From: Patellaria atrata CBS 101060
Taxonomy: Eukaryota
NCBI GenBank assembly: GCA_010093705.1
Contig: MU006095.1
Span: forward strand, 248,001 to 312,000
DNA length: 64,000 bases
Direction: 5' to 3'
A model generated the notes under the pieces. The model had not been told where the DNA came from, did no database searches, and was given only the letters and a program-made list of their open reading frames with translations. Made by a program: the position numbers and the translations under genes. Positions within the stretch are counted from its first letter, which is position 1. Every line of letters begins with the position of its first letter. Positions 10,160 to 26,300 of the stretch are shown in pieces.

Positions 10160-12330
10160 TCTCTTACATTGCGAAGATTGTTGCCCAGGGAGAACATATA
10201 ATGGCCAGTTTTGATCTTTGTGGCCAATTTGCCGCTTCAAATGCCGCGTTTGCCAGGTTGATCAGCATTTAGTCACTACTTGTATGGCATTAGCTCAGGA
10301 GATTTTATGGCATTATTGAAGGTCCCACCTTCTGCGCCAACAAGAGTGCTAGCTATGGGTCTATGCTCAACTCGTCCGTTGTACGGCATTTGTGCAACTA
10401 TTCGATTATCAGATGAGGTTCCAATTGGGCCTTCAGAAACGACTCCCAAGGTAAAACCAGCTGAGGCATATGCAGGACCGGAGAGATAAACTTCTCTCCA
10501 ACGGTGTGAGAAGAAGACGGTTCCCTACAGAATTAGCCACTGCTGAAGTGAAACTCTTCCTAAACAAACGTACTCATTTGGGAGCATCACGATCCTTTTC
10601 ATTAGCACTGCCATATGGTATAATCTTGATGGCATCGGACAAAGTTTCGCTGTTCTTTGAGAAGATATTCTCGTTGAACTAGTCCCTGAAGACTGAGTTC
10701 GACGAGACCTTGATTGTATTCATCCGTTATTGTCTTCTTCCCTTCGCCCCTTTCCGTATATTAGCACCGGTAGTTGGGGTTATGTCAAGAAGCGTTTACT
10801 AGCGATAGTGAACGATGGGTCCTTCATACGGTTCTTTAGCGTATTTTGCTTTGTAGTCTTTTCTGAACTAATCGAATTTGTGATGGTAATCGTGGCACAT
10901 CGGCCAGAACGCACTCTAAGGACTATAAGCAATGACCGAAAACCGTCCAGTACCACATACTCTCGCGAGATATTCTTTCAGTGACTTTCCGCCTACTTCT
11001 ATAGGTGGGCACTACACCCATCTCTCCGCAATGCTGAATATTGTTCTTTTAGCGCTGAGGACGTTTTCAAGAATGGTAATGAACTCGTCAACCATGGTTT
11101 AATGTGTCTTATTACCGTGCGGAAAGAAGTCCGCCGGGTAAAGAATTCTCTTGGGGAAGCTTGAGACATCTTCCAGCTTCAAGGTCTGTGATGCGAGGTG
11201 ATGGAGGGAGTCGAGGCTTCGAGTAAAGAATACGATAACATCAAAAGTCCTATAAAACATATGACTATGAATTGAACACCGTAGACATTATATCAGCACT
11301 TATCTTGAGTTAGTCTGTATCCCTCTCATTGAGGTGCTGTTGAAAGTGGGCCGAAGTGAGCAAAGTCCGTTGCATGTTACTAGAGCACGGATGCTTCCTG
11401 CAGCTATTCCAGAGTGAGTTTGATATTAAAAAAATAATAAGTTGAAGGGCTTGGAAGGCTTACAGTCTCCTGGAATAAAGTAGTCAAGCCACTCATAGCC
11501 CTCAAGGGACGAAGCAGCACCACTAGAGCTGCCCAATAGACTTTTTGATACATATCCCGGCGCGGATTCGTAGGACAATGGAAGTCGATATACTGGTATG
11601 TTGGCTCACCTAAACTGGCAGATGCTGTCATCTTCGTCTTTCCTACAATAACTGCACCTTTAGAGGTCAACTTCTCAACATAGTCGGCATTAGTGGCTGC
11701 TGGTCCGTAGAGTTCGATAAAAGTTTTACTCATCATAGTACTTTGGATGCCTGCCAAGTCAAAGATATCTTTAACATCCATTCGAGCGCCTGTTAATGGG
11801 TTGTCCTCCGAGTGTTCGGAATACAGTCTACTGGGGACAGCGACATGTTTCCAGATTCCGGGTACTGACAGAGTTCAAGAGGACAAAGGTGTGAAGTTTA
11901 TAAGACGATGTATTAGAACCTTGTACTTGGGGAAGAGAACTTATGTTGGCGGGGTAAGTAGATTATCTGGTATAACTGAAATCATGAAACCATTCAGAGT
12001 ATTTTCATATAACCGCCATACTTGGTGGATGTTCGATCCGTGAAGAAAGTATGGGCCTGGGGGAAGCGTTTTGTCGGATGAGATTAGCTCAGATAACCAA
12101 ACTTGTTTGAATAACTGCGAAAACTTATGTTGCTGAACTGCTTAACCTGACGTTTGACCATCAACATTCTGAATCACGAGTCCCTCGGTAAGTTTTAGAC
12201 TGAATACATCATCGAGGGACGAGTACTCTTCCCAAAGCTGAGTAAACCCGTCAGTATCGCTGGTAGAGTGCTCCGGAGCCAGAACGGTGACCGGTTGGAT
12301 ACTTCGTTCAGAAGAAAACCCAACCACTGA
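10160..12330 (-). pseudogene. Amidase-signature family pseudogene
   Basis: VKDIFDLAG, GAVIVGKTKMT, a frameshifted GSSSGAA, AGSIRA..CNGL.SLRPT and C-terminal RVEHRPI; multiple stops and frameshifts. Ends approximate. Confidence 0.8.
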
Positions 12331-15068
12331 TCCCTAAGTGCTCTCAGTCGCAGCAAGTTTTGGGATGTCTGATAGAACTTACCACTACATATGCATGCAG
12401 AATGTAGTGTATTCCGTCGACAATCTCCGTAACAGTACCTCTCAACGCCATATTGCTCAGATTTCTGTGGGTGAGAACAGTAGGGTGTAGGTATAAAATT
12501 TTGATTCTCTCCCGGCACGACAGGACTCAGAACTTGTTCTACTGCAGCCAAGCAAATCTTCCCGTGCTCAACATTTCATAGTTCATACCCTTGTGGGGAA
12601 ATTCTACTTGTGTACTAACGGAGACACGGCAGATTTTTCAGACAAAGAAAGTACAAACGGGTGGACACAGCGTAAAATTGAGTTAACAACTAAGGCGCTG
12701 CTGCAGACGTCTTCTCAGACCCGCCCTCGTCTCAAGATGAAACTCAGAAGGAAGTACAAAGCTAGGTATTTTACCTCCCGTCACCAAGTTTGTGATCTTG
12801 AACTAATCTATGATTATTTATAAAACCGCTTTATGGCGCTTCCTATGAAGTAGCCCCCTATTGCCCCTACCCTCTTCTATTCCTAGTTTTCTAAACCTTT
12901 GTGTACATGTACTCATTTAAACCCTAAATCCATGGAGCGATCTAGTCCAACATTTAATGACTGATCCACGCCCTTCTTTGAAAGCGACTGAAGTATTGTT
13001 CCTTGATTCTATCCGTGCTGTGTGCGATGAGAATGAATTATAATAAAAGCTATGTGCGATGGCGGAAGCGAAAAGACGAAGTCGCTGTGGGATAACTCTA
13101 TAAAGTGTAATCATCAACGGCAAACTAGTCTCATGATATTGTCTGAACGAGGAAATACAAAGCCGCTCTTGAGGGCGGAGGGTAGGTTTATCTGCATGTA
13201 CATTCGAAAGGTTAGCGATTCAGACCTGTCATTGGGGTGTGCTGTCTCTACTACTCATGTTCTTTGACTGACTAACGGGTATAACTTCTCCATACCGTCA
13301 TATCTTTAAAAACGGCGATAAGATGAGTACCGATATCTCTTCTAGATACTCAACGAAAGTGTAAATCAGCCTATTCAGTTGCTTTGAAGGCACTTCGGGT
13401 GGATTCAGAAAGAAGATTTGTGGAGTTCTCTAGTGGAAAAAGCGAGATTGGCGTATACAGATCGTCGCTTGGATGTAATTGTGATATTTCCCGTATGTTT
13501 GCACCCCTAGAGCTTGGAGACGATTGCTATGCGTGATAACCTCAGCCAATGGATTGTATCAACCAATTCAGATTCCATGACAACTTGTTCCCTATAGCAT
13601 AAGCAGCGAATAGTTGAGGATTTCCAGCGATTCGATGAAAGTGGTTAGTCGCTCTTCCCTTCGTGACCAAGCTTCCGTTCTTGACCCAAGGATGAAAGAC
13701 AAGCGATAGACTTGCCTTGAGTCTCGATTGCGATTCCTCAATAGTGTCTCTTCCCATAAAAACATCTATCTTTCAACGAAATCTTTCCGAGGAGTCCATT
13801 CTACGATGTAATCCGACTGAGAATCCAAATTTCCCAGTAGTGTAATTCGCGCGTTTAACTGACGGTCAGGATCGTGGAAGGAGAATGTTGGATGTGACCG
13901 TAAATATTTCACTTACTTGACGCACCGTCTGCTTCTTCTGAAAAATAATCATATGAGCAATGAGAAGGGGTCTTGATACCGGTTTCATTTTCCCTCTGAA
14001 GGTCTGGCTGATATGCTCATTGCTGGCCACTGCGAAAGCATGAGTTTCGGACAGCTTGTACTGGACAGTGTCGCGGTTCGGGAATGACAGAGCAAAGAGA
14101 TCTCCAGGAAATCTCTCTAGGAATAAAGACGTAGGTAGTATGCTTTTGACTGTAAAGGAGGACAATATCGTATTCGGTTATCTGGCCGTTCACGAGCCAC
14201 TAGCTTCTGTAGAGAGGTCCTCGACGAGTTTTGGGATTATTGGCCTTGATCCTGCTTATGGTCTTCGAGGCCACAGTCAGTGTACGCACCTGCTTTCGAA
14301 TATCATGTTTCCGTGAACCCAGATAGATCATCCGTATCGAAGAGAGCAGATTCAACTTAGAGTTTCCTATTAACTTTCGTTAAGCTCACCCAGGTGAGGA
14401 TCCTCATGGAGCTACAATGCAGGAGTACAGAGGTTGATTACAACGAATGTTGCCCGTTTCGTACTAGAATGAAGGAAGCGGTATTCAGTTCGATGCCGAT
14501 AAACATTTTACTGCTTTTATAAGAGAAAAGGTAGATTTAGAAATTAGCTGATGGCCATGGAAGCAAGACAGAATGTAACCCAGCGGAACGTCTAAGATTA
14601 TGCGGTGACCCATCTTCAAAGGAGATTGATCCAACATTACCACTTCTGACGCGGAACTGTGCCCGTCCTTTCTTGAAAGCTACAGCTCAAGGTTGTAAGC
14701 CTTGCGACACTGTCAGTCCTTGAATTGTAGTAGATCATGCCGGTCGAAACGGAGTGTATGGCTGCCCGCTTCATCGTGGTCTATGTCTGGCTCATAGTCG
14801 AAGCAGTTGGTGTCGTTTATCCATAGATCCTAAAATGATAGGTTGACAGGACATGTGTGTATGGGACAATCATGACAGCCTAGCGTTAGTAGAGCCACTT
14901 CTCGGGCCATAGTAGTTGCTTAAAGTACCGCGAGAAAGGTGGTAAAGCACTACAAGGTGTGGAGTAAATTGTGTATGCAATGCTAAGTCGAAAATTGAAG
15001 CTGACCGATGGCATAGCATTGGCAGGGCTACCTCTTTTCTTTAGTAACGGAATCGCTCAGCAACCCAT

Positions 15069-15348
15069 TGTCACGGGTTAGACCCGATAGGTATAAGTGC
15101 CTTGGATGATCCAGCGGCTTAGCTATGCTATACTTAAATAGAACAACTTACGTTGTTCTGGCACTTTCTCTTACATTCTTTCCTTAAGTTTAAGCTCCAT
15201 GCATGATCCAGTAGCTTAGTCATGTTGTACTTTAATAGAACAGCTCACGCTGTTCTGATACTCTCTTTTACTTTCTTTCCTTAAGTTTAAGCTTCATGTA
15301 CATACAGCAATATACCTTTCAGCTCTCATCTGAGGTTGAGCCTTGACA
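15069..15348. mobile_element. Solo LTR (280 bp) with 5-bp TSD CCCAT and internal 97-bp tandem duplication
   Basis: Termini TGTCAC...TTGACA; CCCAT at 15064-15068 and 15349-15353; internal repeats start at 15106 and 15203. Confidence 0.85.
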
Positions 15349-17296
15349 CCCATGGGAAAGGTGCCGCGAACAATAGGAGGCATAGTAGATCGCGTTGAAG
15401 CTTGTGGTGTCAAAATAAGCAAAAGTGGAGTCTAGAGGCGAGTGTAGAACTATGGACCGAACCGCTGCCTGTCAAGCCCTGTGCTAGTGTTGCAATGAGT
15501 TTGGGGTTTGCTAGGAGGTGAAAGCTTGGCAGCAACGACAACAATCATGCTCGGTAGCAAAGGTAAATATAGACTGGAATTCAGCAGCCAGCGGGGGGGA
15601 AAATAAAATTCTTGCATTCATGTGGCTTTTAGAAAGAGTTCCCCAGTGAACGGTATCACGAGCAGTCCCTCTCGGGACAGCCTTGACAGCGCAGTGAGAG
15701 AGGAGCATTGCCCACCACATCAGCATAGTCTCCTCTACGACCACTGGAAAGGTAATGGGTATCGCATTCTCTGTCAGCCTGCGTCCTTCTCTTTTCTTAG
15801 ATACTGCACAACACGTCCATACCGTCCGAGCTGGTAGTAGCCTAGACAGGATGAAGAACGTAGACATCGCATAGCGACCAAGTATTAGTACAAAAATGAC
15901 GGAATTTCATTTACATACCATTCGTGTTAATCAGCGCCTTTGTGCATAACTGCTTCGTCCCGTGAATTGCAGCGTGAATTGAAGGGCAAATATGCAAGCT
16001 TGCCCACCTCTGGGGCAACATTATACCCGTCTGGTTCCGCTTACGGAGAAGAAGCACTGCTCCTGCGGCATCTTACGGTTATGCAGCGCGGTGTATGCAG
16101 GAGATTCTATTGATTGGTTTGGGTAGGATGATACTGCGGTATCTTGTTATGACTTCGAAAGGCCTCGACCTCCTAGACTTGCCCATGTACCCGGCTTGAC
16201 CCCTAAGATCTCGTGTTAAAAAGGATTCGCTTTATGGTAAATTCTATAGATAGGTTGGTAACCCATGAAGGGACCTGGGCTATAGTCGAGATACGGCTGG
16301 AAGAGAAATGTTCGTACTTAAGCATCCCCTCGCCTTACTACACTGTGCGCTATCTGGCCAGCTTGCTGGTGTTGAAGAGTTATAGCTCTGAGTGGAGCCA
16401 TCTAATCTACGTATCTGCACTACCTTGAAGTGATGACTAACCCAGTGCTGTAGGGGTCTATCAGAGTGTTGGCAGCTAGGGGAAGGCGATGGCATGACAT
16501 AGATCATAACTATGATCATAGGACTCACCGAAAGTTCTTGAAAAGGCTCCTTGTAGACTGTTACTTGCCTCGAGAGACACTCCCGTCCTTCAGCATAGAC
16601 ATTAAGTGAAGCTATGGGCTCGCAGCCCCCTATCAGAGACCCGTCAGCGAATCACCCCCTGTTGCGCGTTGGTGCAGCGGAGGGCGGTCTACCACTAGTG
16701 CGTCGAGAGGGTTGTATTCTGCCTTCGGTCGGCACACAGAAGTTTTTCTTCTCTTCGGCCACACTCACCTTTTTGATCTCTACAACCTCATCCACGTCCA
16801 CTACCCTCATCCTTTCTAACACCGCGCCATCGTTCCTGAGACTTCATTTTATCAGAGAACAATAAGACATCTTCAACTATGCTCCTCATCTACTTTTTAT
16901 TTTCTTCGTGCGTCGTTTAGGTCGGTCTTGGCATTCTGTGCGGAGATTCGGCCGGAAGTGGTAACATCTCCATCCACAACTCTCTCAACAGTAAGTCTGC
17001 GACTGCATAACTGACGTGTCGAACGTCTAAAAAGGCTGAAGTTACTCGTGAGCTCAATGCTTGCTGGTTTTTCGCCCGAATAGACTAAGTCCGAAGAGGT
17101 CAGCGTCGTGGAGGTCGCGGTGGCGTACGACCAGGTAAGTCAGTCGAACCCCATTTCTTCTTATGCACCAAGCACAATCGAAGCTAGTAATAACTTCAAC
17201 TAACCATAATCGGCATATCATGGCAAGTTCACTCATTCAAGGTGATCACCTAAAAGCAAGTGTAAGCGTCTATCTCCACTGACCCAGCCACATTAG

Positions 17297-17351
17297 TCGA
17301 TGAACGACAGGGGTAACAACTTCAACATTGATTGACACTTACTATTCTGAG
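17297..17351 (+). ncRNA. Candidate box C/D snoRNA
   Basis: Imperfect C box TCGATGA (17297) and D box CTGA (17347-17350), downstream of a GTAAGC donor; short, target not recognised. Confidence 0.3.
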
Positions 17352-18040
17352 CAGCTATGTGAGTGTCAACATTAACACCAAGTAAGTTGTTTCTCCTTTT
17401 CTCTTATCTTTTCTAACAGACGTTGTCGAAATTCACCCACCTTCGCCTTCTGTCGTGCCAGGAGACATGCACCAACCACGAGATATTCCTTTACACTCAA
17501 AGTTATTAAGACCTACCCACAACAAACTGAGGAATGATACTGACTAGCATGAGTCTTCGCAGGTAATCGCCACTAGAACCCAACTATCTTCATGCTTATA
17601 CCTTCTTCAATTGTGCTCCTCAATCACTCAACCCATTCCGTCTCCCTTGCTCTTTCACAAACCACCAACTAACCCATGGATGAACATGGGCCAGATAGTC
17701 TCGCAAGAGCATCACCGTGATTAGGATCGTCTTCGGACATCTTGTGGTCTCATCACTGAAGTCTGATCCGAGACAAATGTCGGCATCTAGAAGGATGTCA
17801 GGGCTTACAGTGACCGCTTGTCTTAAGATATAGACATGTGGTTGTATTATAAGCCTAACATACACTTCGCGACGGGTCCCAATCTTGGTAAGTTAACTGG
17901 TAAGTTAGATTCACTCCTTCACCATTCGAAACATCTGATCAACTACTCCTTTGTGATTTGATTTTGAAACAGAAGGTCACCGAGGCCTTAGGAACTACAC
18001 TCCTAAGCCGACTAGTGAAGACGTGCTCTTTCCACCGTCC

Positions 18041-18175
18041 TCTCCTGTGTCCCACGGCAAGGGAACCGCAAGGGGCCCACCGAATTCTGGGGATGACCGA
18101 GAACAAAACCCTTAATTCTTGAGAAGCACATTCATGAGATCAAAGATGTGCATCTGAACATACAAGGGGACACAC
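18041..18175 (+). ncRNA. Candidate box H/ACA snoRNA
   Basis: Hairpin (tctc..gtccc/gggat..gaga), H box ACAAAA (18103-08), hairpin ccctt..gcacat/atgtgc..aaggg, ACA at 18170-72. Confidence 0.55.
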
Positions 18176-18493
18176 TACTTCAGGGCTGTTGACTCAACAG
18201 AAACTAGCATCCTGCGTCACCACCCACCGCTTGATGTCTTATACAGACCCAAGAGAAATTGGTCAATGCTTGAGCCGATCCTTTTTGGCATGAGCCATTA
18301 GCCAATCCAATATACGTAGGCAGTGAGGCTCGTTCGCATTTGACCCTGTCAATGCAGCTATTGGATACAAGCCATTATACCGAATGGTCATATTTGGCAA
18401 CATCGTAACATTTCGAATTATTGGTCTCCCATTTCCCTCTATTCTTTCCTTTGTAAACTGGTTTATAAAGTGAAGGCTAACAGTCGATAGGGT

Positions 18494-18574
18494 GGGCGAC
18501 GAAATCCGACTCTGCACCTCCAAGTGGTGTCGCCTGGTTACTGGTCTGATTTCCCCAGACTTGCCAACACAGAG
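18494..18574 (+). ncRNA. HDV-like self-cleaving ribozyme fold (near canonical)
   Basis: P1 GGGCGAC/GUCGCCU with G1-U wobble; P2 CUCUG/CAGAG; P3 ACC/GGU; L3 UCCAAGU; P1.1 CC/GG (18536-37); P4 GUCUG/CAGAC; J4/2 GCCAA with putative catalytic C18564. Confidence 0.7.
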
Positions 18575-18772
18575 AGGTCCGAGAGTAGCAATATCGGCGT
18601 GGGCATCGTAAGACACGGAACACCTGTTCTCCCATCAGGTATATCCTCATCGAACCCTTCGCCATTACACGTAAACATTCCCCCTGCACAATCTTTACTT
18701 AGTTAACCACAAGCTCTTAGATGTCGACACACGTATTACCGTTCAATGACCGACACTCTCTTTGATACTGCC

Positions 18773-20396
18773 GGCCAGAGCGAGATTGGACTTATACTCA
18801 AGTGATGAGTTTTTCTTGTTAGGCCAAAACCAAAAGCGTGTCACTACCGTCCCATGGTCAGGAACTTATGTCTTCAATACATTTGCTTCTATTTGTGACA
18901 TGCGACATCTCCAACTCTTTACGGAATAATCGTCAATGAAACGTGGAAATACTGGCGATTTAGTCTACCTAGCACATCCTCCTTTTCAACTGCGTAATTC
19001 TTGCTTGTCTCAGGTAACCTCTTATATCAGCCGGCGATCGGCCACGGCAAGGTTGAGGCTCATATTCCAGTGATAAGTCTTCCTTGTTAGGCCAAAATCA
19101 AAAGCGAGTCACCACCAGACAGGAACTTATGTCTTCAATACATTTGCTTCCATTTGTGACTTGCGACATCTCTGTCTCTTCGTCATTGCGCTGTGGAACC
19201 TTGCTAAGTGGAACATGGGATATAAGAGCCTGATTACTGACTTTTTCTTTTTAGGTCTCTGTCAGCCACGACACGACTGGGACTCATACTTCAAGTGATG
19301 AGTCTTCCTTGTTAGGCCAAAATCAAAAGCGTGTCACTACCGTCCCAGGGTCAGGAACTTATGTCTGCCATACATTTGCGCCTATTTGTGACACGCGACA
19401 TCTTTATCTCTTAGAATATGATTATTAGCGTTTTCTTTCATGTGTTGTCAACCACAACGAGGTAGGAGCTCATACACAAAGTGATGAGCTCTCCTTGTTA
19501 GGCTAAGATCAAAAGCGAGCCAAAGTCAGGAATTTATGTCTCTCCATATGTTTGTTCCATTTCTGACTATCGCGACATGTTTTATTCGAGGGCAGTGGGG
19601 CGCAAGAGGGGGAACTCCAGCAATGCTCAACACCTCAACGTGGTGCTGGAGTCTAGTAACCTTCTGAAGGTGAAGCTAAGATTGAGCCGGCAAGGATAAG
19701 GCGGAGCTTATACTTAAAGTGATAAGTTCTCCTTCTTATGCCGAGCCCAAAAGCCAGTCAAAGTCAGGAACTTATGTCTCCCATACATCTGTTCTATTTG
19801 TGACACGCGACATTGGTAATAAGGGCCGTGGGGCGCAAGAGAAGGAACTCTAGCGATGCTCAACATCTAAACGTGGTGCTGAAGACTAGTAGTCTTCTTT
19901 TGGAGGGGAAGCTAAGATTGAGCTGGTTACAAACAAGTAAGAACCCATCCTCAAAATGATGGACTCAGCTTGTTAGGCCAAATATCAAAAGCGAGCAGAG
20001 TTATAGAGCTTATGTCTCCCGTACATTTGCCTCTTTTAATGACTTACGACATCCATTTAGTATGTTTCGGAACTGTCATCTACAGGGTACCAGCGGAGCT
20101 CAACACCTCAACGTGATGCTGGAGTCTAGTAGCTTTCTTCTGGCGGTGAAGCAAAGATTGAGCTGACCATGATAAGATAGGAGCTCAATGCCTAAAGTGG
20201 ACGATTTCTTCTTATTAGGCCTAGAAAAATAGCGTGTGGGAGTTGAGCTTTTTTCGGTAGGACTCCCGTATCGCATGGCCTGTTCGAGGACAACCATATG
20301 TTTTTCCATGCATATGGACCATTTTTGGATAGGGGCTTCTGGCTTTACAAAGCCGTGCGAGCGGCTCCATCGTAAGGACGAAACACGCCGACATCC
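18773..20396 (+). ncRNA. Tandem array of seven H/ACA-like RNA units (18773-18910, 19040-19171, 19264-19403, 19450-19580, 19685-19815, 19921-20054, 20165-20396)
   Basis: Repeated hairpin - ANANNA - hairpin - cgACAnnn layout with compensatory changes; shared cores cttgttaggcc, caaaagcg, ggaacttatgtc, cgacat. The H box is degenerate in unit 5. Confidence 0.7.
19615..20163 (+). repeat. Three degenerate HDV-like folds (19615-19687, 19848-19923, 20088-20163) alternating with H/ACA-like units
   Basis: P2 GCUCAA/UUGAGC, P3 A(C/U)C/G(G/A)U, L3 U(C/A)AACGU, P1 CUCCAGC/GCUGGAG (best copy), J4/2 GC(U/A)AA; G1 and P1.1 GG are missing. Confidence 0.55.
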
Positions 20397-23300
20397 TTTG
20401 TTAGTCATGAGACGGTCATCCATGGAATCCAGAGGTATCGTATCAGACAACATATGAGCCGACGAGCGTAAACTAGAGAAATTTCCCTCGTTTAATCATG
20501 ATAGAAAGAGAGTGATAAGCCGGGAGTACGTTCTCAAAAGATTTGTCCTTTTCAGGACTCGGAATACCCAAACTTTGCAGATCGTTATCCTGGAACCGGG
20601 GTTCCCAGCCGCTCTTTCCTCACTGTTGTTCCACCAGAGCTGTTCAAGCCGAATGCGATCAAAGTCTTGATGCTAACTTTGATTTTGTGTATTAGGGTTT
20701 CTGATATGATGTATCAATCGGACCGAAATCGATGAGAGATTCCACCGCGGATTGACGATCTAGTAAGACAAAGGTAATGATTTAATGATACGCTTGCTGA
20801 CGGCTGATAGACTTGACCATTTCTGTCTTGGTGTAACCGGACCTGGGTTGACAGCTTGATTTAGATAGGTACAATGTTGGTGTGCTCTTTGTAGTGGACT
20901 GAGACTTGAACTGTTGGTGGATTACAATTGCGGTTTGGGGTTATTGGTCGGCTTATTGTGTCGTACTCGGGGCTCGATGGCTTATTTGTATGTAGTGTAA
21001 TGACGCAGCGAAATAATTGAAGTTGACTGGGTTCTGAGGGGCATGCCAGCCACCTTCTTGTCCACGCCGATTGAAGACCTCTTTAGAGTTTGGATGCCTA
21101 AAGTCACGCCGTCTTTATGTTGACATCTTTAACCTCATAAGCCTTATAACATGCTGATGGTACTGATCCCACATGGCCTCGCCAAGATGAAGATGTTTAG
21201 CTAGGAAAAGCCTTGCATTGAACAGAGAAAAATAGCGGAGAACTTTTCCCTATCTGGACTAATGAAGATTTAGAGTGCGAGCGAGTGGAGGCTTAGTGTG
21301 CTATTGGGCGACGGTCTTCATCCAGTTGATGGCCTTGAAATGTCGACTGTAAGTCATCCTTGTCCTTTTCTCTTAATGTTTCAGCTGGATCATATTTATA
21401 GTGACTATTGACCGATTTTCAGAAATGCGAGGTCTAATTCTTTAATATATCAGCCAGAAAAGAGCGTAAACGTGGTTGTGGATATCATGCGCTGCTTAAG
21501 AGCGTAGTTCCCGTGAGAGTAGGAGTTTCACAGGCGTGAATTTTGTTGTGAGGAGCCGAGCGGAGATGAGATGATCTGCCGGAAAGAATATCTATTGACA
21601 ATTTCCAACATAGGATATCAATCCCGGACGGCCCTAAGATAAGATGTCTCGGTAGAATGTACTTTCAACCTCCGGTCCGCAAGAGCTATCCTAGACTAAA
21701 ATGCAAGGTGTCTGGGTTAGACTCATTACGGATGGTGGATATTATTGATATCCATCACACCGCAGGACAACGTCCGAGTTCGCCAACTTCGGTTGAAGGA
21801 AGCGTAGACAAGAATTCTTTCCGAGTTCGATGAATCACCCATCGTGAGAAGCCTGGTGGAGAGAGACCCTCTCTTAATCTCAGCGGCCTCATTCGAATTT
21901 GAAGAGAAATAAAACTCAATCGTATAAAAGAAGGGCTCGTAATGTCGAGGGTTTCAGGGCCAAAAATGATTTTGTAAATCCATAGGGAAAGGAATACAGG
22001 GGAGTGAATCCGGCCTATCTTGCGGACCAAAAGGTTTTTGGAATCTCATTGTCAACCACAATGCAATGTAAAGGCAGCTTGGACTTTTGGTACGGTCGGT
22101 TGCTTAAGTAGTGTCCCCGTCTATGATAATTGTTAAATCGTAATGAACTGAGGGATGAGGTCGAAATAGCCAGTCGAGTTAAGAATGATAGCATGGATCT
22201 AAGCGAAGTGTGGCTGTCAGCTTTCGTCCCACTATGGCCTAGCTGATGCTAAGGTAAAGACCGAACACCAATCATCGCACTACTCGAAACGAACCGTGAT
22301 GCAGGAGATCAACCCATGAATGCTCGAAAGCAAAGAAAGGACTGTTACGGGTTCGGTTTGGTCGCCTTGAGCGGCATACATTGGCTGAGATACGTGCCAC
22401 TCCGTCAAGGTTCCTCTGTCTATAGAATGTAAATATTGTTGTGTGGGGCATCATCACCTTCACAACGAATCGCCTGCTTTGAGTCCTCTCATACCAGGAA
22501 ATACGTGTGTGATGTTGGATGAAGCATTTACTGGATATTCGCCGCGAAAGGCGTCCCAAACCGTATCGAAAACCAGTCCATTTCTGGTAGAATCTTCATG
22601 CAGCGACAGCAAGGACAGCTAAATGGATAATTAGAATGTTACTTATACCCTGTTATTGTAGTGAGAGACTCAAAAAATGGTGAAGGAGAGAAGAAAAGTA
22701 AGGGTGTGGTTAGTACGATCGGAAGCATGAATTTGCAAGCACAAGTAGTGCTTCCCTCAACGTGTCGTGCACACGAGAATGATTATAATTACCCCCGGAG
22801 CCTCATCATTATGGAGTAATCCTTGTTTAACGACCCCAGTGTAGAATGATTCTAGCATTGCGTTGTGCGCGGATCAAGTGGCGAAGGGTGGTTCTGATGG
22901 AAGACCGGGCCGAACTTGGGAGCAACAACCAAGCCAAGAAGATATAAAGGCTAGCGCGCACCTCTCGACAAGTACAACACGCTTATTGGGACGTAGATCC
23001 ATTAGATCATGAGGTAACAGTTTTGATTCTACTCATCACGATATGAACCCGCTCGAATATCGACTACAGCAAGACCTCTGGATCTATTGATGCACATCTC
23101 AGTGCACGCAAGCCGGAAAAGCGTATTTAATCCGCTAGTATCGCGACCTCTAACTCACTATTGTATTTTATTCATTCCTAAAAGAACCCGTAGAAGTAGT
23201 GATTGTGGAAATTGGCCTGATCGGCGCGTGTCCCTCGCTAATGTAGTTCCCATCCGCATTGTGAACGAACAACTCGCTACCGTATACCGTGAGATAGAGT

Positions 23301-26300
23301 CTACTGTAGCTGTAGATGCCGGAAGTGTCCGAAGCAAAGTCGGACCACTTCTTAGAAGTGAGCAGCAATGAAGCTGCGAGTGCAATATACCGGTCTTCCT
23401 TTTGATTGACTATGAGTTAGTATATCTGCATGGTTAGTTCACTCGCCGAGAATATGCATCTCGTCCAAATTTTGCTTAAAAACCACAAGGAACGCCCATA
23501 TCTATACACAGTGAAGCCGCTTTCTAGGCTCTATTGTATATATCGGTAATATAGGTAGATTCGTACAGGTAGCCAGCTTAGTGCGGTTTCAGTGGAGAGC
23601 CTCAGCGGATCGCGTTAGGCGGCATAGAGATTGTAGAGAGCTCTTCTTAACCAGTAAAGACTGGCGACTCCAAGAGATTGGCCCTGCTGGTAAGATGGTC
23701 CAATAAGCAGTGCAGAGTAAAGATGTAATTTGACCTAAGCAGAATGCAAGAGGTGTACGAACATACCTGATATTACCATAAATTCCTTTTGAATTGATTT
23801 TGAGAAATTAGGGACGAGTCATTGCAATATAAAGAGATTTCTGAAATACCGCATATTGCATAGGGTTTTCGTAGGCCCTCGGAGGAGACCCGTTTGCTGA
23901 GGAAGTCGCACAATGCCCCTCGGCCCGAAATCTCTCTTTCCCCCAACCATCCAAAACTCGGACAACTTACTACTAATCAAAATACTTTCTTGATCAACGC
24001 TTCGCCTATTCATAATCATAACTCCAAGAAATCTCTTTTGCTTCGCTCGAACGCTCAACTTCTTCAATTTCTTCTTCCCGTTGTCAGTATCACACGTCAT
24101 CAATCTTTTTTCTCGCTGCTCTCTGATATGCCTCCCGCCGCCCGTCAACAGCCGGAACGTGGAGATCTGCATCATGCTTCCCCTCAAGGTCATAATTATG
24201 ATCTTAATCTTCAATCTCGTCCCATATCTCTTCGCTCGCCTTAGGGAGCTCCTTGCAACAGCGCCACAGCAGTGAGCGCAGCGATACCCGGCCCAACAGC
24301 GGCATTATTCGCTCGCTGCTCGTCTCTTTCTCCTTTTCTGGTCCTTCTGCACCTCCTGTGCGTGACTGTCCTGGTAAGCTCTTGCTTTGCTCGCTCCGTT
24401 TTGTTTTCACATGCGTTTATAACTATTCTTCTAGCCGCACCGTATGTATCATCACCTTGAGGCTCACTACCAAGCTCTTTTCATCCCGGCTCTTGGATCT
24501 CCTGGCAACTAGCCCGCAAGCGAACCGTATGTGGGTAATCTTGAATATGATGGGTTATACTGAGAGCTGACGGCTATACAAAGAAATCCTATCGAAACCC
24601 TAGACAATAGCACAATGGGAGTGAGGCAATAATCACACCCGGCAACTGTTCCGTCTGAACAGTCCTAGGGTATCTAGGAGTGTCTAGAAATGCGTACACG
24701 TAGTCAAACACCTTAATAAATACCTTCTGAGCTTTGGGAAATCCAAATGACTTACTTTTGCACGGCCGTGATACATTGTAGACTGCTCAGGGGATGATTT
24801 GCTCACCTTTCCATATCCATACCCCATTTGTAAACTGCTTTCTTGCATTTCTAGTAATGAATTAAGTAACCTACCTTTATCGTAATCCATAATTTGCCCT
24901 TGATAGATGATTTTGAGACTAGACGGTACGCCAGAAGGGCCAGATTTTCGCGCGCATCCCTTGCGGGGTTCTTCCCTTGTTGATATTTGTCCTACATTTT
25001 TCAACTCACATTAGCGAACCAACAACCTCATAACAACTCCAGGCTCCTTTTATCATCTAAAGCCATCATTTTCCCTTTAATTATACCAGAGTACTTCAGA
25101 AATGCAGTTCTCTGATTCCTCTCTCTATCCACGACTAGATCAGCCGTGATGCTGCTATCCTAGCTTTTCCGGTGAACCAACACGCACCGGCATTTGACAT
25201 GAGCCACTACTGTGAGGATCTGTCCGTACCTATTGGTGGACAGTACATATAATGAAAGTTGGTATATTCCGAAGATCAGAGCAATTGTCGCAGTTATCTA
25301 TGCTCCAGCTATGGCGTTCCCGGCATAGGTACCAATATACAACATCAATCGACTTAAGCCACTACTAGACAATTCACATCAGTGACCCGGATCTGCCAGT
25401 GGGAAGTTCCACCATCCTGTCTTCGGCACAGGGCTCTCTCTTAGCGACACTAGTGGTTTGACACTGATTGGTAATCACACAGCAACTCTTCCGACGAGTA
25501 CGTGATGGATGCAACTCCGAGAGACACCGAGTCCGAGTCGGCAGACCGGATCCTATTCAATTACCTTCTCTGAGAGCACTTCTGCGAAAAAAAAAACAGG
25601 TAGTCTGTATAGCAAATCATCACAGATAGATTTGCGTTGTAACTACTTCACAAAGAATTGAGGGTTTCCCTCCTGATTCCCATGTTGCGAACACCTTAGC
25701 ATGGGATGGACCGAGAAGTGAAAGCTGGCCAAAGGAATAGCGAACCTTTCGGCGAGAGAAAGCTGAACGAGGGTTGCTCGTGAGCCCTAAGTTATCTTGC
25801 CAAGTGGAAATCGACATGGTTCACGATGATGAAAATTTGGTTGAACTGAGGAAGAACGACATACGGTTACGGAGCGGGTATGGTTCTCACGTTTCGAACA
25901 CCAAGGATATGATTTTCCTGGTTTGTTCCACATGCACCCAAAAGTCAAAGCGGTAGGAAAGACAAGTGAGCTTTGCGACAAGGGAAGGCCCAACAAGGGT
26001 CGCTCGCTCTCAGTCATCCTCGTAAGGTGCTACGGGATGGACGCAAAAGTCAAAGCCGTACGGAGGACCGGTGAATCCTCCAAGGTGGTACATCGAAGCA
26101 TTGTAATGGGCAAGGCCCAATCGACCTGAGCTGAAGAGGAAACGTAGGAAAGATACAATTTGGTTCAATCCAGGCGTAGAACCGTTGCTCCATGCATCTC
26201 CGAGTAGCCCCAAAAGTCGGTCCGTGATGATTAAAAGAGCTGGAAACAAAGACGTTGAAGGAAGATGGACGGTCCGAGAGCCAAAGGGGGATACTTGGAC

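Follow-up and report, generated by a model that had tools for sequence, protein, structure and literature searches.

What is the work of a predicted self-cleaving RNA that lies in fungal nuclear DNA directly behind a splice-acceptor-like signal, with no retrotransposon after it? The question was raised by a 64,000-nucleotide stretch of Patellaria atrata CBS 101060 (GenBank assembly GCA_010093705.1, contig MU006095.1, positions 248,001 to 312,000 of the forward strand), which is called the window here and to which all positions refer. A first-pass annotation had pointed to a near-canonical hepatitis delta virus (HDV)-like ribozyme, here termed R1 (18494-18574, + strand, 81 nucleotides (nt), predicted). 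Our analysis showed that R1 was followed on the same strand by three further HDV-like folds (R2-R4) and by a tandem array of seven small-RNA-like units (U1-U7), which the annotation did not mention. The reading that we favor is that R1 is an active HDV-like ribozyme of the fungal lineage that processes this small-RNA array, and we give it a probability of roughly one half.

Architecture and relatives of the predicted R1 ribozyme

R1 was analyzed by a script parse, a descriptor and an Rfam alignment. The parse gave the helix order P1-P2-P3-P3'-P1'-P1.1-P4-P4'-J4/2-P2', which is the complete nested double pseudoknot of HDV. P1 was formed by GGGCGAC (18494-18500) and GTCGCCT (18529-18535) with all seven pairs intact, P2 by CTCTG (18510-18514) and CAGAG (18570-18574) with five of five, and P3 by ACC (18516-18518) and GGT (18526-18528) with three of three. 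The joining segment J1/2, GAAATCCGA, occupied 18501-18509, and an extra cytosine, C18515, lay between P2 and P3. The loop L3, TCCAAGT (18519-18525), supplied the CC (18520-18521) that stood opposite GG (18536-18537), directly after P1', to give the CC/GG of P1.1. L3 had both a U at its first position and a G at its sixth, the two residues whose pairing in the structure of HDV is a reverse wobble. P4 (18543-18548 with 18556-18561) was a plain 6-bp hairpin with one G.U pair and without loop E. J4/2 was GCCAACA (18563-18569), in which C18564, followed by N-A-A, is by its presence in the sequence the candidate for the J4/2 cytosine that acts as the catalytic residue of HDV-like ribozymes. Direct reading and the parse thus bore out the earlier description of R1 as having five helices, a G1-U wobble, a CC/GG P1.1 and a GCCAA J4/2. 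The first P1 pair, G18494.U18535, satisfied the purine-pyrimidine rule for the cut-site pair, which is the rule of the HDV class according to Li and Breaker (2017, BMC Genomics 18:785, PMC5640933), and the predicted cut should fall between U18493 and G18494. The zero-length join of P2 to P3 in earlier descriptors was absent from R1, where C18515 intervenes; the same paper reports that an extra P2-P3 nucleotide breaks earlier search criteria, yet such RNAs cleave (PMC5640933).

Our own R1 descriptor gave one match on the + strand and none on the - strand of the 64-kb window. Among 188 simulated first-order-Markov sequences of 128 kb, it found 0.059 matches per sequence when any P1 was allowed, and a match in none of the 188 when G1.U was required. 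A relaxed descriptor without the L3 and P1.1 constraints gave dozens of matches on both strands and was dropped as uninformative. In Rfam, drz-agam-1 aligned over its full length (1-82 of 82) to 18494-18577 with 22.7 bits, and its first position was the predicted G1. The E-value of this match was 0.38 over 4227 families, the best of seven matches in a search of 17000-23000; for that one family alone it would correspond to roughly 1e-4.

Relatives of R1 were sought in metagenome contigs with the pattern CACCTCCAAGTGGTG-N6-GG-N20-50-GCNAA, which gave at least 120 loci. Of the 120 loci listed, 104 represented one GC-rich protein-coding stretch (…TSKWWKEERHGVF…DYNQNAKD), whose peptide we take to be bacterial LigD, and 16 others were among the matches listed. 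The 15-nt ribozyme core CACCTCCAAGTGGTG doubles as the coding sequence of a conserved bacterial peptide, which calls for caution in pattern-based ribozyme searches. One locus from a soil-metagenome contig (L103) aligned to R1 without gaps over 81 nt, with 29 of 60 positions identical outside those forced by the pattern. Identity was 6/9 in J1/2, 9/10 in P2 and 6/25 in P4, which was still a hairpin. In P1, two pairs were altered on both sides and still paired, one had become G.U, and one had become a C-A mismatch. The conserved block ran from GCTAACA, about 18 nt before the cut, through P2, and nothing alike was found beyond it; the sequence 3' of the L103 ribozyme, within the half of the 1178-nt contig that was covered, had no similarity to the window. 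L103 is a probable homologue of R1 with compensatory changes in P1.

The C-ACC-TCCAAGT-GGT core of R1 recurred in metagenome ribozymes whose helices differed from those of R1 and were fully paired. A flawless HDV-like fold was found in L028 (1588-1675, - strand), with P1 GGGGACC/GGTCTCC, P2 TGAATG/CATTCA and a long GC-rich P4; it had the extra C and the L3 TCCAAGT as in R1 and a J4/2 of GCTAACG, and its P1 and P2 were unrelated to those of R1. The same ribozyme, with its 5' end cut off, was present in L073 (1-95, + strand). Two further loci, L014 and L059, had the identical P3/L3 core, a paired P2 and a long J1/2 of about 65 nt, and their P4 differed by a compensatory G-C to A-U exchange. Four AT-rich loci had a very short P4 region and a paired P2, of 7 bp in L050, L110 and L112 and of 5-6 bp in L019. 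Three others (L071, L087, L094) retained the core and resembled this AT-rich group, and no convincing P2 was seen in them; the open reading frame (ORF) 3' of L094 looked by eye like the C-terminus of a long interspersed nuclear element and had no Pfam match. Four loci (L039, L065, L082, L097) were without P2, looked like chance matches and were discounted.

Because the architecture of R1 was complete, drz-agam-1 started at G1, the core recurred with different paired helices and the probable homologue carried compensatory changes, the identity of R1 as an HDV-like ribozyme is well supported in silico. R1 would very probably cleave itself in vitro.

Predicted downstream ribozymes and the array of small-RNA-like units

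Four HDV-like folds, R1 and the predicted ribozymes R2, R3 and R4, lay on one strand inside 1.7 kb. R2 (19615-19687, +) is a predicted fungal-variant HDV ribozyme in which all helices were perfect. Its P1 was CTCCAGC/GCTGGAG with a C-G pair at the cut site, its P2 was GCTCAA/TTGAGC, the extra C was present, the base of P4 held AGTA..GAA (loop E), and J4/2 was GCTAAGA with C19676. R3 (19848-19923, +) and R4 (20088-20163, +) are predicted to belong to the class of R2. In R3 the cut-site pair was C-G, P1 also held a U.G pair and a single C-A mismatch, and P3 was ATC/GGT; R4 had U.G at the cut site and one mismatch in each of P1 and P3, and may be decayed. On these grounds R2 would be expected to cleave, and R3 and R4 to be feeble or inactive. 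The helices of R1-R4 and their relatives were compared by explicit parse. The extra C before P3 was present in all four ribozymes, and a 7-nt J4/2, GCNAANN, was common to R1 and the folds at 19615, 19848 and 20088, reading GCNAAGA in R2-R4. The parse thus agreed with the earlier observation that the extra C before P3 and two nucleotides after GCNAA are common to the four folds. In R2-R4, TAGTA...GAA abutted GCNAA directly. The motif TAGTA-N-GAAGCNAA had three matches in the window, all of them in R2-R4, against 0.23 expected, and none of 100 shuffles reached three; the P3/L3 core had six matches, four of which were R1-R4, against 1.48 expected, and none of 100 shuffles reached six. Repeat analysis identified three copies of the R2-type element, spaced 233 and 240 nt. 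The Rfam model HDV-F-prausnitzii matched R2 at 19615-19689 with 18.3 bits (gathering score 44, E 6.2).

Fungal HDV ribozyme variants of this kind were described by Li and Breaker (PMC5640933) with 230 representatives in 26 fungal species; Ajellomyces, Arthroderma and Aspergillus are named in Table S1 and Penicillium in the main text. They typically have C-G at the cut site, a P4 that is partly replaced by loop E, and an extra P2-P3 nucleotide, mostly C. Self-cleavage was reported for constructs from Penicillium chrysogenum and Aspergillus niger, with the cut at the P1 base, and RNAs that carry both loop E and the extra C leave 2',3'-cyclic phosphate and 5'-OH ends (PMC5640933). Like these variants, R2-R4 carried the extra C and had loop E (AGUA/GAA) at their P4 base, and R2 and R3 also shared C-G at the cut site. 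R2 thus had all three traits and was a perfect member, R3 had all of them with one P1 mismatch, and R4 was a member with mismatches. R1 shared with the published variants the extra C, the ACC/GGT P3, the U...GU frame of L3 and the 7-nt GCNAANN J4/2, but its cut-site pair was G.U, its P1.1 was a full CC/GG and its P4 was a simple hairpin without loop E. The first-pass annotation had grouped R1 with the three folds downstream as suspected members of one variant family. The class proved to be real, but it had already been published (PMC5640933), and R1 had one of its three traits. As predicted folds, R2-R4 are ordinary members of the published class. The predicted structure of R1 places it between the classical and the fungal-variant consensus: the extra C and the 7-nt J4/2 are those of the variants, and the G.U pair, the full P1.1 and the plain P4 follow the classical form. 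A conserved purine-rich leader, GAGGGC.GTGGGGCGCAAGAG..GGAA, was seen at 19588-19614 and 19821-19847 (+), in the intervals that separate the ACA of U4 and U5 from the R2 and R3 cut sites; it was missing before R4 and could form an alternative pairing with P1.

The seven units were tandem paralogues of about 120 nt each, with a longer U7, and had the layout hairpin-hinge-hairpin-ACA. On the + strand they were located at 18786-18910 (U1, ACA 18905-18907), 19048-19171 (U2, ACA 19166-19168), 19277-19403 (U3, ACA 19398-19400), 19458-19580 (U4, ACA 19575-19577), 19699-19815 (U5, ACA 19810-19812), 19934-20054 (U6, ACA 20049-20051) and 20172-20396 (U7, ACA 20391-20393). U1 consisted of a 5' hairpin, the hinge CTTGTTAGGCCAAAACCAAAAGCG with an H-box-like AAACCA, and a 3' hairpin with an internal loop. 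U7 was a divergent copy that kept the hinge CTTATTAGGCCTAGAAAAATAGCG and ended in CGACAT. The conserved hinge was CTTGTTAGGCCAAAATCAAAAGCG, and an ANANNA-type hexamer was found in six of the seven hinges; U5 had no clean ANANNA. ACA stood immediately 3' of the 3' hairpin in all seven units. RNAalifold on six units predicted two hairpins with 27 pairs in total, of which 7 showed double-sided compensatory changes, and the single-sequence folds agreed. The 3' hairpin contained a large internal loop, whose top lay, by our own count, from about 15 nt (U1) to about 17 nt (U4) from the ACA; in box H/ACA RNAs, the pseudouridylation pocket lies about 14-16 nt from the box. The 5' hairpin had 9-10 bp, and its 3' strand held the C-box-like GTGATGAG. 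A box C/D reading of the units with GTGATGAG as the C box was rejected, because GTGATGAG is the 3' strand of a hairpin and becomes GTGATAAG in U2 and U5 jointly with the opposite strand, as expected of a helix and not of a C box. Our hypothesis is that the units are box H/ACA small nucleolar RNA (snoRNA)-like, and U1-U7 may be a new, tandemly amplified H/ACA-type snoRNA family.

The arrangement and spacing of these elements were read directly. The order on the + strand was R1, a 211-nt spacer, U1, U2, U3, U4, R2, U5, R3, U6, R4 and U7. R2, R3 and R4 started 37, 35 and 36 nt after the preceding ACA, with the repeat period of 233/240 nt, and each ended about 11-15 nt before the hairpin of the next unit. 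The spacer between R1 and U1 was not structured (z +1.62). Abutting acceptor- and donor-like signals without an exon between them were seen on the + strand at 19006-19018 (…TGTCTCAG directly followed by GTAACC…) and at 19230-19260 (…TTACTGAC, a T-rich run and TTTAG, directly followed by GTCTCT…). These signals, which flank U1-U3, could reflect recursive-type splicing or one unit per intron.

Under the favored reading, in which R1 processes the array, the whole 1.9-kb array would be a single RNA polymerase II precursor. On transcription, R1 would fold into its nested double pseudoknot, and C18564 together with a bound divalent ion would cut between U18493 and G18494, leaving a 2',3'-cyclic phosphate on the short 5' piece and a 5'-OH on everything downstream. 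This cut would sever the capped leader and any upstream exon or intron from the precursor. R2-R4 would cut 35-37 nt behind U4, U5 and U6, and exonucleases would trim the products to units protected as ribonucleoproteins. The ribozymes would take the role that RNase III (Rnt1) has in yeast polycistronic snoRNA processing. Architecture and arrangement are read from the sequence; that the array is transcribed as one RNA, that the ribozymes cut, that the products are trimmed and that the units are snoRNAs is inferred. A more specific version is tentative, and we consider it rather doubtful: a ribozyme-punctuated snoRNA operon, whose polycistronic H/ACA-type precursor would carry its own endonucleases in the form of HDV-like ribozymes, in place of RNase III. 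In this version R1 would lie just behind a promoter-proximal intron or the transcription start and would strip off the cap and leader, and R2-R4 would cut between units.

The sequence in front of R1 and the competing explanations

The sequence 5' of R1 could be read in two ways. Two adjacent CCAAT motifs (18302-18311, +) were promoter-like by motif match and may function as such. They were followed by a pyrimidine-rich tract with TATAAA after it (18426-18469, +; TATAAA at 18464-18469, 25-30 nt before the R1 cut), which could be a CT box with a TATA box or the polypyrimidine tract of an intron. In the intron-end reading, the tract is followed by the branch-point-like GCTAAC (18476-18481) and the 3' splice-site-like TAG (18488-18490), together 18476-18490 on the + strand; the TAG ends at 18490 and G1 is at 18494, exactly as annotated at first pass. 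GGT (18491-18493) separates the TAG from G1, and the acceptor-like signal therefore ends 3 nt before the predicted cut. A donor-like GTGAGG (18323) lay 168 nt 5' of the TAG, and L103 had GTAAGC about 170 nt 5' of its own TAG. The block GCTAAC(N)TAGGG preceded the L103 ribozyme too, and its retention is suggestive of a functional element adjoining the ribozyme, but does not discriminate between promoter and intron. The promoter reading (two CCAAT motifs, CT tract, TATAAA) appears to fit the stretch as well as the acceptor reading, and we give a 3' splice site that is actually used at 18490 a chance of about one in three.

The wider locus contained protein-coding genes and an ORF-poor region around the array. 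ORFs of the window matched PRP21, Hsp70, class II tRNA synthetase, Kelch repeats and an MFS transporter; with its fungal-type intron signals, the window is, on this evidence, eukaryotic nuclear DNA. Two sequencing runs of one sample covered it at depths of about 318 and about 426, evenly and without joints or ends; the runs are therefore genomic DNA and say nothing on expression either way. In these runs, 31-mers from the array repeats had only about twice the neighboring depth, which identifies the modules as local duplicates and not as a dispersed family. At about 16.99-17.97 kb (+), several fungal-type intron-like signals (GTAAGT...CTAAC..AG) were present, with short exons interrupted by stops, and the region 5' of R1 may be a non-coding, snoRNA-host-like gene. 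Weak Rfam box C/D-like matches were seen at 17312-17375 (-) and 17730-17761 (-) (DdR1, E 2.4; SNORD15/SNOR75, E 1.9-8); they were far under the gathering scores and on the strand opposite the intron-like signals.

Several findings weigh against R1 as an active processor of the array. At the level of R1 itself, our descriptor was written after the candidate had been seen and is biased in its favor, and a whole genome of tens of Mb is expected to give a few chance matches of the looser descriptor. The drz-agam-1 score of 22.7 bits was below the gathering score of 37, and no Rfam match in the whole window reached gathering level. The nested minimum-free-energy fold of R1 retained P1 and P4, and its energy was ordinary (z = -0.57), with 50 of 200 shuffles equally or more stable; the z values of R1-R4 ranged unremarkably from -0.72 to +1.01. 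Since the R1 fold was no more stable than shuffles, the case for R1 is architectural and not thermodynamic. The C-A mismatch in P1 of L103, in which P2 was also paired at four of five positions, and the helix mismatches of R3 and R4 point to possible decay, and some copies may be decaying rather than conserved. At the level of the array, R2-R4 lay in a 238-nt module that was recently duplicated in tandem, and this alone is enough to explain their number. No ribozyme was found among U1-U4, so release cannot depend on ribozymes throughout the array; the U1-U4 spacers carried splice-like signals, and release would have to be by mixed means, which weakens the model. The 5' hairpin of the units had no pseudouridylation pocket, and the units had no Rfam match, neither in 19030-19600 at E <= 10 nor in the search of 17000-23000. 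Since 5'-3' exonucleases are not known to act directly on 5'-OH ends, an added kinase step must be assumed. The accessible text of PMC5640933 describes the fungal variants as having "widely variable gene associations" and gives neither a biological role nor a link to snoRNAs.

As an alternative, R1 might be active with the upstream transcript as its partner, lying 3 nt inside an exon after a real intron (GCTAAC and the TAG at 18488-18490). Its cut would then either provide the 3' end of a spliced non-coding RNA that is not polyadenylated or be in a kinetic race with splicing, and the array would be incidental or separately transcribed. The intron-like signals at about 16.99-17.97 kb, the GCTAAC...TAGGG that was kept before the L103 ribozyme while the sequence farther upstream was not, and the donor-like motifs about 170 nt 5' of both TAGs are consistent with this explanation. 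A GT[AG]AG pentamer within 200 nt is, however, expected about 0.4 times by chance (own arithmetic), the CCAAT motifs, CT tract and TATAAA are promoter-like, and three more same-strand ribozymes interleaved with units would be left unexplained; we regard the explanation as unlikely. A look-alike that satisfies the descriptor without cleaving, by chance or after loss of activity, would account for the sub-gathering Rfam score, the ordinary fold energy and the success of a post hoc descriptor, and the extra C and a 5-nt J1/4 spacer are deviations from the classical consensus. On the other side stand the failure of all 188 simulated sequences to yield a G1.U match, the tolerance of the extra C in experimentally active fungal ribozymes (PMC5640933), the R1 core with different paired helices in L103 and L028, and the position of R1 next to three ribozymes of a validated class. 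An inactive look-alike is therefore quite improbable.

Two further explanations derive R1 or its neighbors from mobile elements. R1 could be the leftover or domesticated 5' ribozyme of a non-LTR (non-long-terminal-repeat) retrotransposon, which may still cleave and has no present role at the locus. Its primary sequence resembles drz-agam-1, the identical P3/L3 core occurs in L014 and L059, and the L059 ribozyme precedes an ORF with a weak RVT_1 match (E 4.3e-5, 23.8 bits, cut-off 29.6). Non-LTR insertions are usually 5'-truncated, and a lone 5' end would be an unusual relic. The helices of R1 were all intact, and R1 was co-oriented with the array and R2-R4. The absence of a retrotransposon ORF 3' of R1, which had been noted at first pass, also held: no stop-to-stop ORF of at least 150 amino acids was found in 11874-23819 (12 kb of normal GC content), and none of the 40 ORFs of at least 60 amino acids in 12.2-24.3 kb matched a reverse transcriptase or any other Pfam domain at E <= 0.01. 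A retrotransposon relic is improbable on these grounds, if somewhat less so than a look-alike. The smallest chance is given to a retrozyme-like repeat, in which R2-U5, R3-U6 and R4-U7 would be monomers of about 238 nt that are circularized by tRNA ligase, with R1 as a diverged outlier. As expected of such a repeat, the modules stand head to tail, recur every 233/240 nt and hold a single ribozyme apiece, and 5'-OH and cyclic-phosphate ribozyme ends suit RNA ligases. The twofold depth of module 31-mers shows that the module is not repeated many times across the rest of the genome, U1-U4 have no ribozymes, the units are snoRNA-like and not mobile-element-like, and no target-site or LTR-like features were found.

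Relation to known systems and significance

In predicted fold and cut position, R1 agrees with drz-Agam-1 (Rfam RF01787) and with the ribozymes at the 5' end of non-LTR elements, and it is strongly alike to the drz-agam-1 consensus in P1, J1/2 (AAAUCC), P3/L3 and P1'. It differs from them by its sub-gathering score, the extra C between P2 and P3, and the lack of a retrotransposon ORF on its 3' side. The mammalian CPEB3 ribozyme, which is HDV-like and lies deep in an intron of a protein-coding gene, is a parallel in that it is tied to a cellular transcript, through an intron or splice site, and not to a mobile element; R1 differs in lying 3 nt 3' of a putative acceptor in a non-coding context. 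In yeast, polycistronic and capped snoRNA precursors are released by RNase III (Rnt1). The proposed likeness is that cuts between units and behind the cap would admit exonucleases and that the bound small nucleolar ribonucleoprotein would set the mature ends; the difference is that here the endonuclease would be the RNA itself and would leave 5'-OH and 2',3'-cyclic phosphate ends. Ends of this kind also arise from the Las1 cuts in internal transcribed spacer 2.

In our literature search, no published link between HDV-like ribozymes and snoRNA or box H/ACA arrays was found, and a search on fungal HDV ribozyme variants yielded Li and Breaker 2017 (PMC5640933) alone. The accessible text of a paper on the fungal snoRNAome (PMC5824354) had no occurrence of "ribozyme". 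The ribozymes described here are interleaved with H/ACA-like units, whereas the 2017 paper has variable gene associations. The array context appears not to be in print, and the locus itself might already be among the 230 representatives of that paper (PMC5640933).

If the ribozymes are inactive or unrelated to the units, the finding shrinks to one further member of a known ribozyme class. As a natural intermediate with the extra C, G.U, a full P1.1 and no loop E, R1 helps to define which deviations matter for catalysis. HDV-like ribozymes are widespread, and we know of almost none with an assigned cellular job outside retrotransposons and delta agents. The accessible text of the 2017 survey leaves its 230 fungal variants without a function (PMC5640933), and this locus offers a concrete hypothesis for one. 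If the favored reading is true, R1-R4 would be the first case known to us of self-cleaving RNAs that free small nucleolar RNAs, and part of the fungal ribozyme census would be explained. The array would then be a natural counterpart of engineered ribozyme-flanked guide-RNA arrays, and cellular HDV-like ribozymes would have a defined housekeeping role outside retrotransposons.

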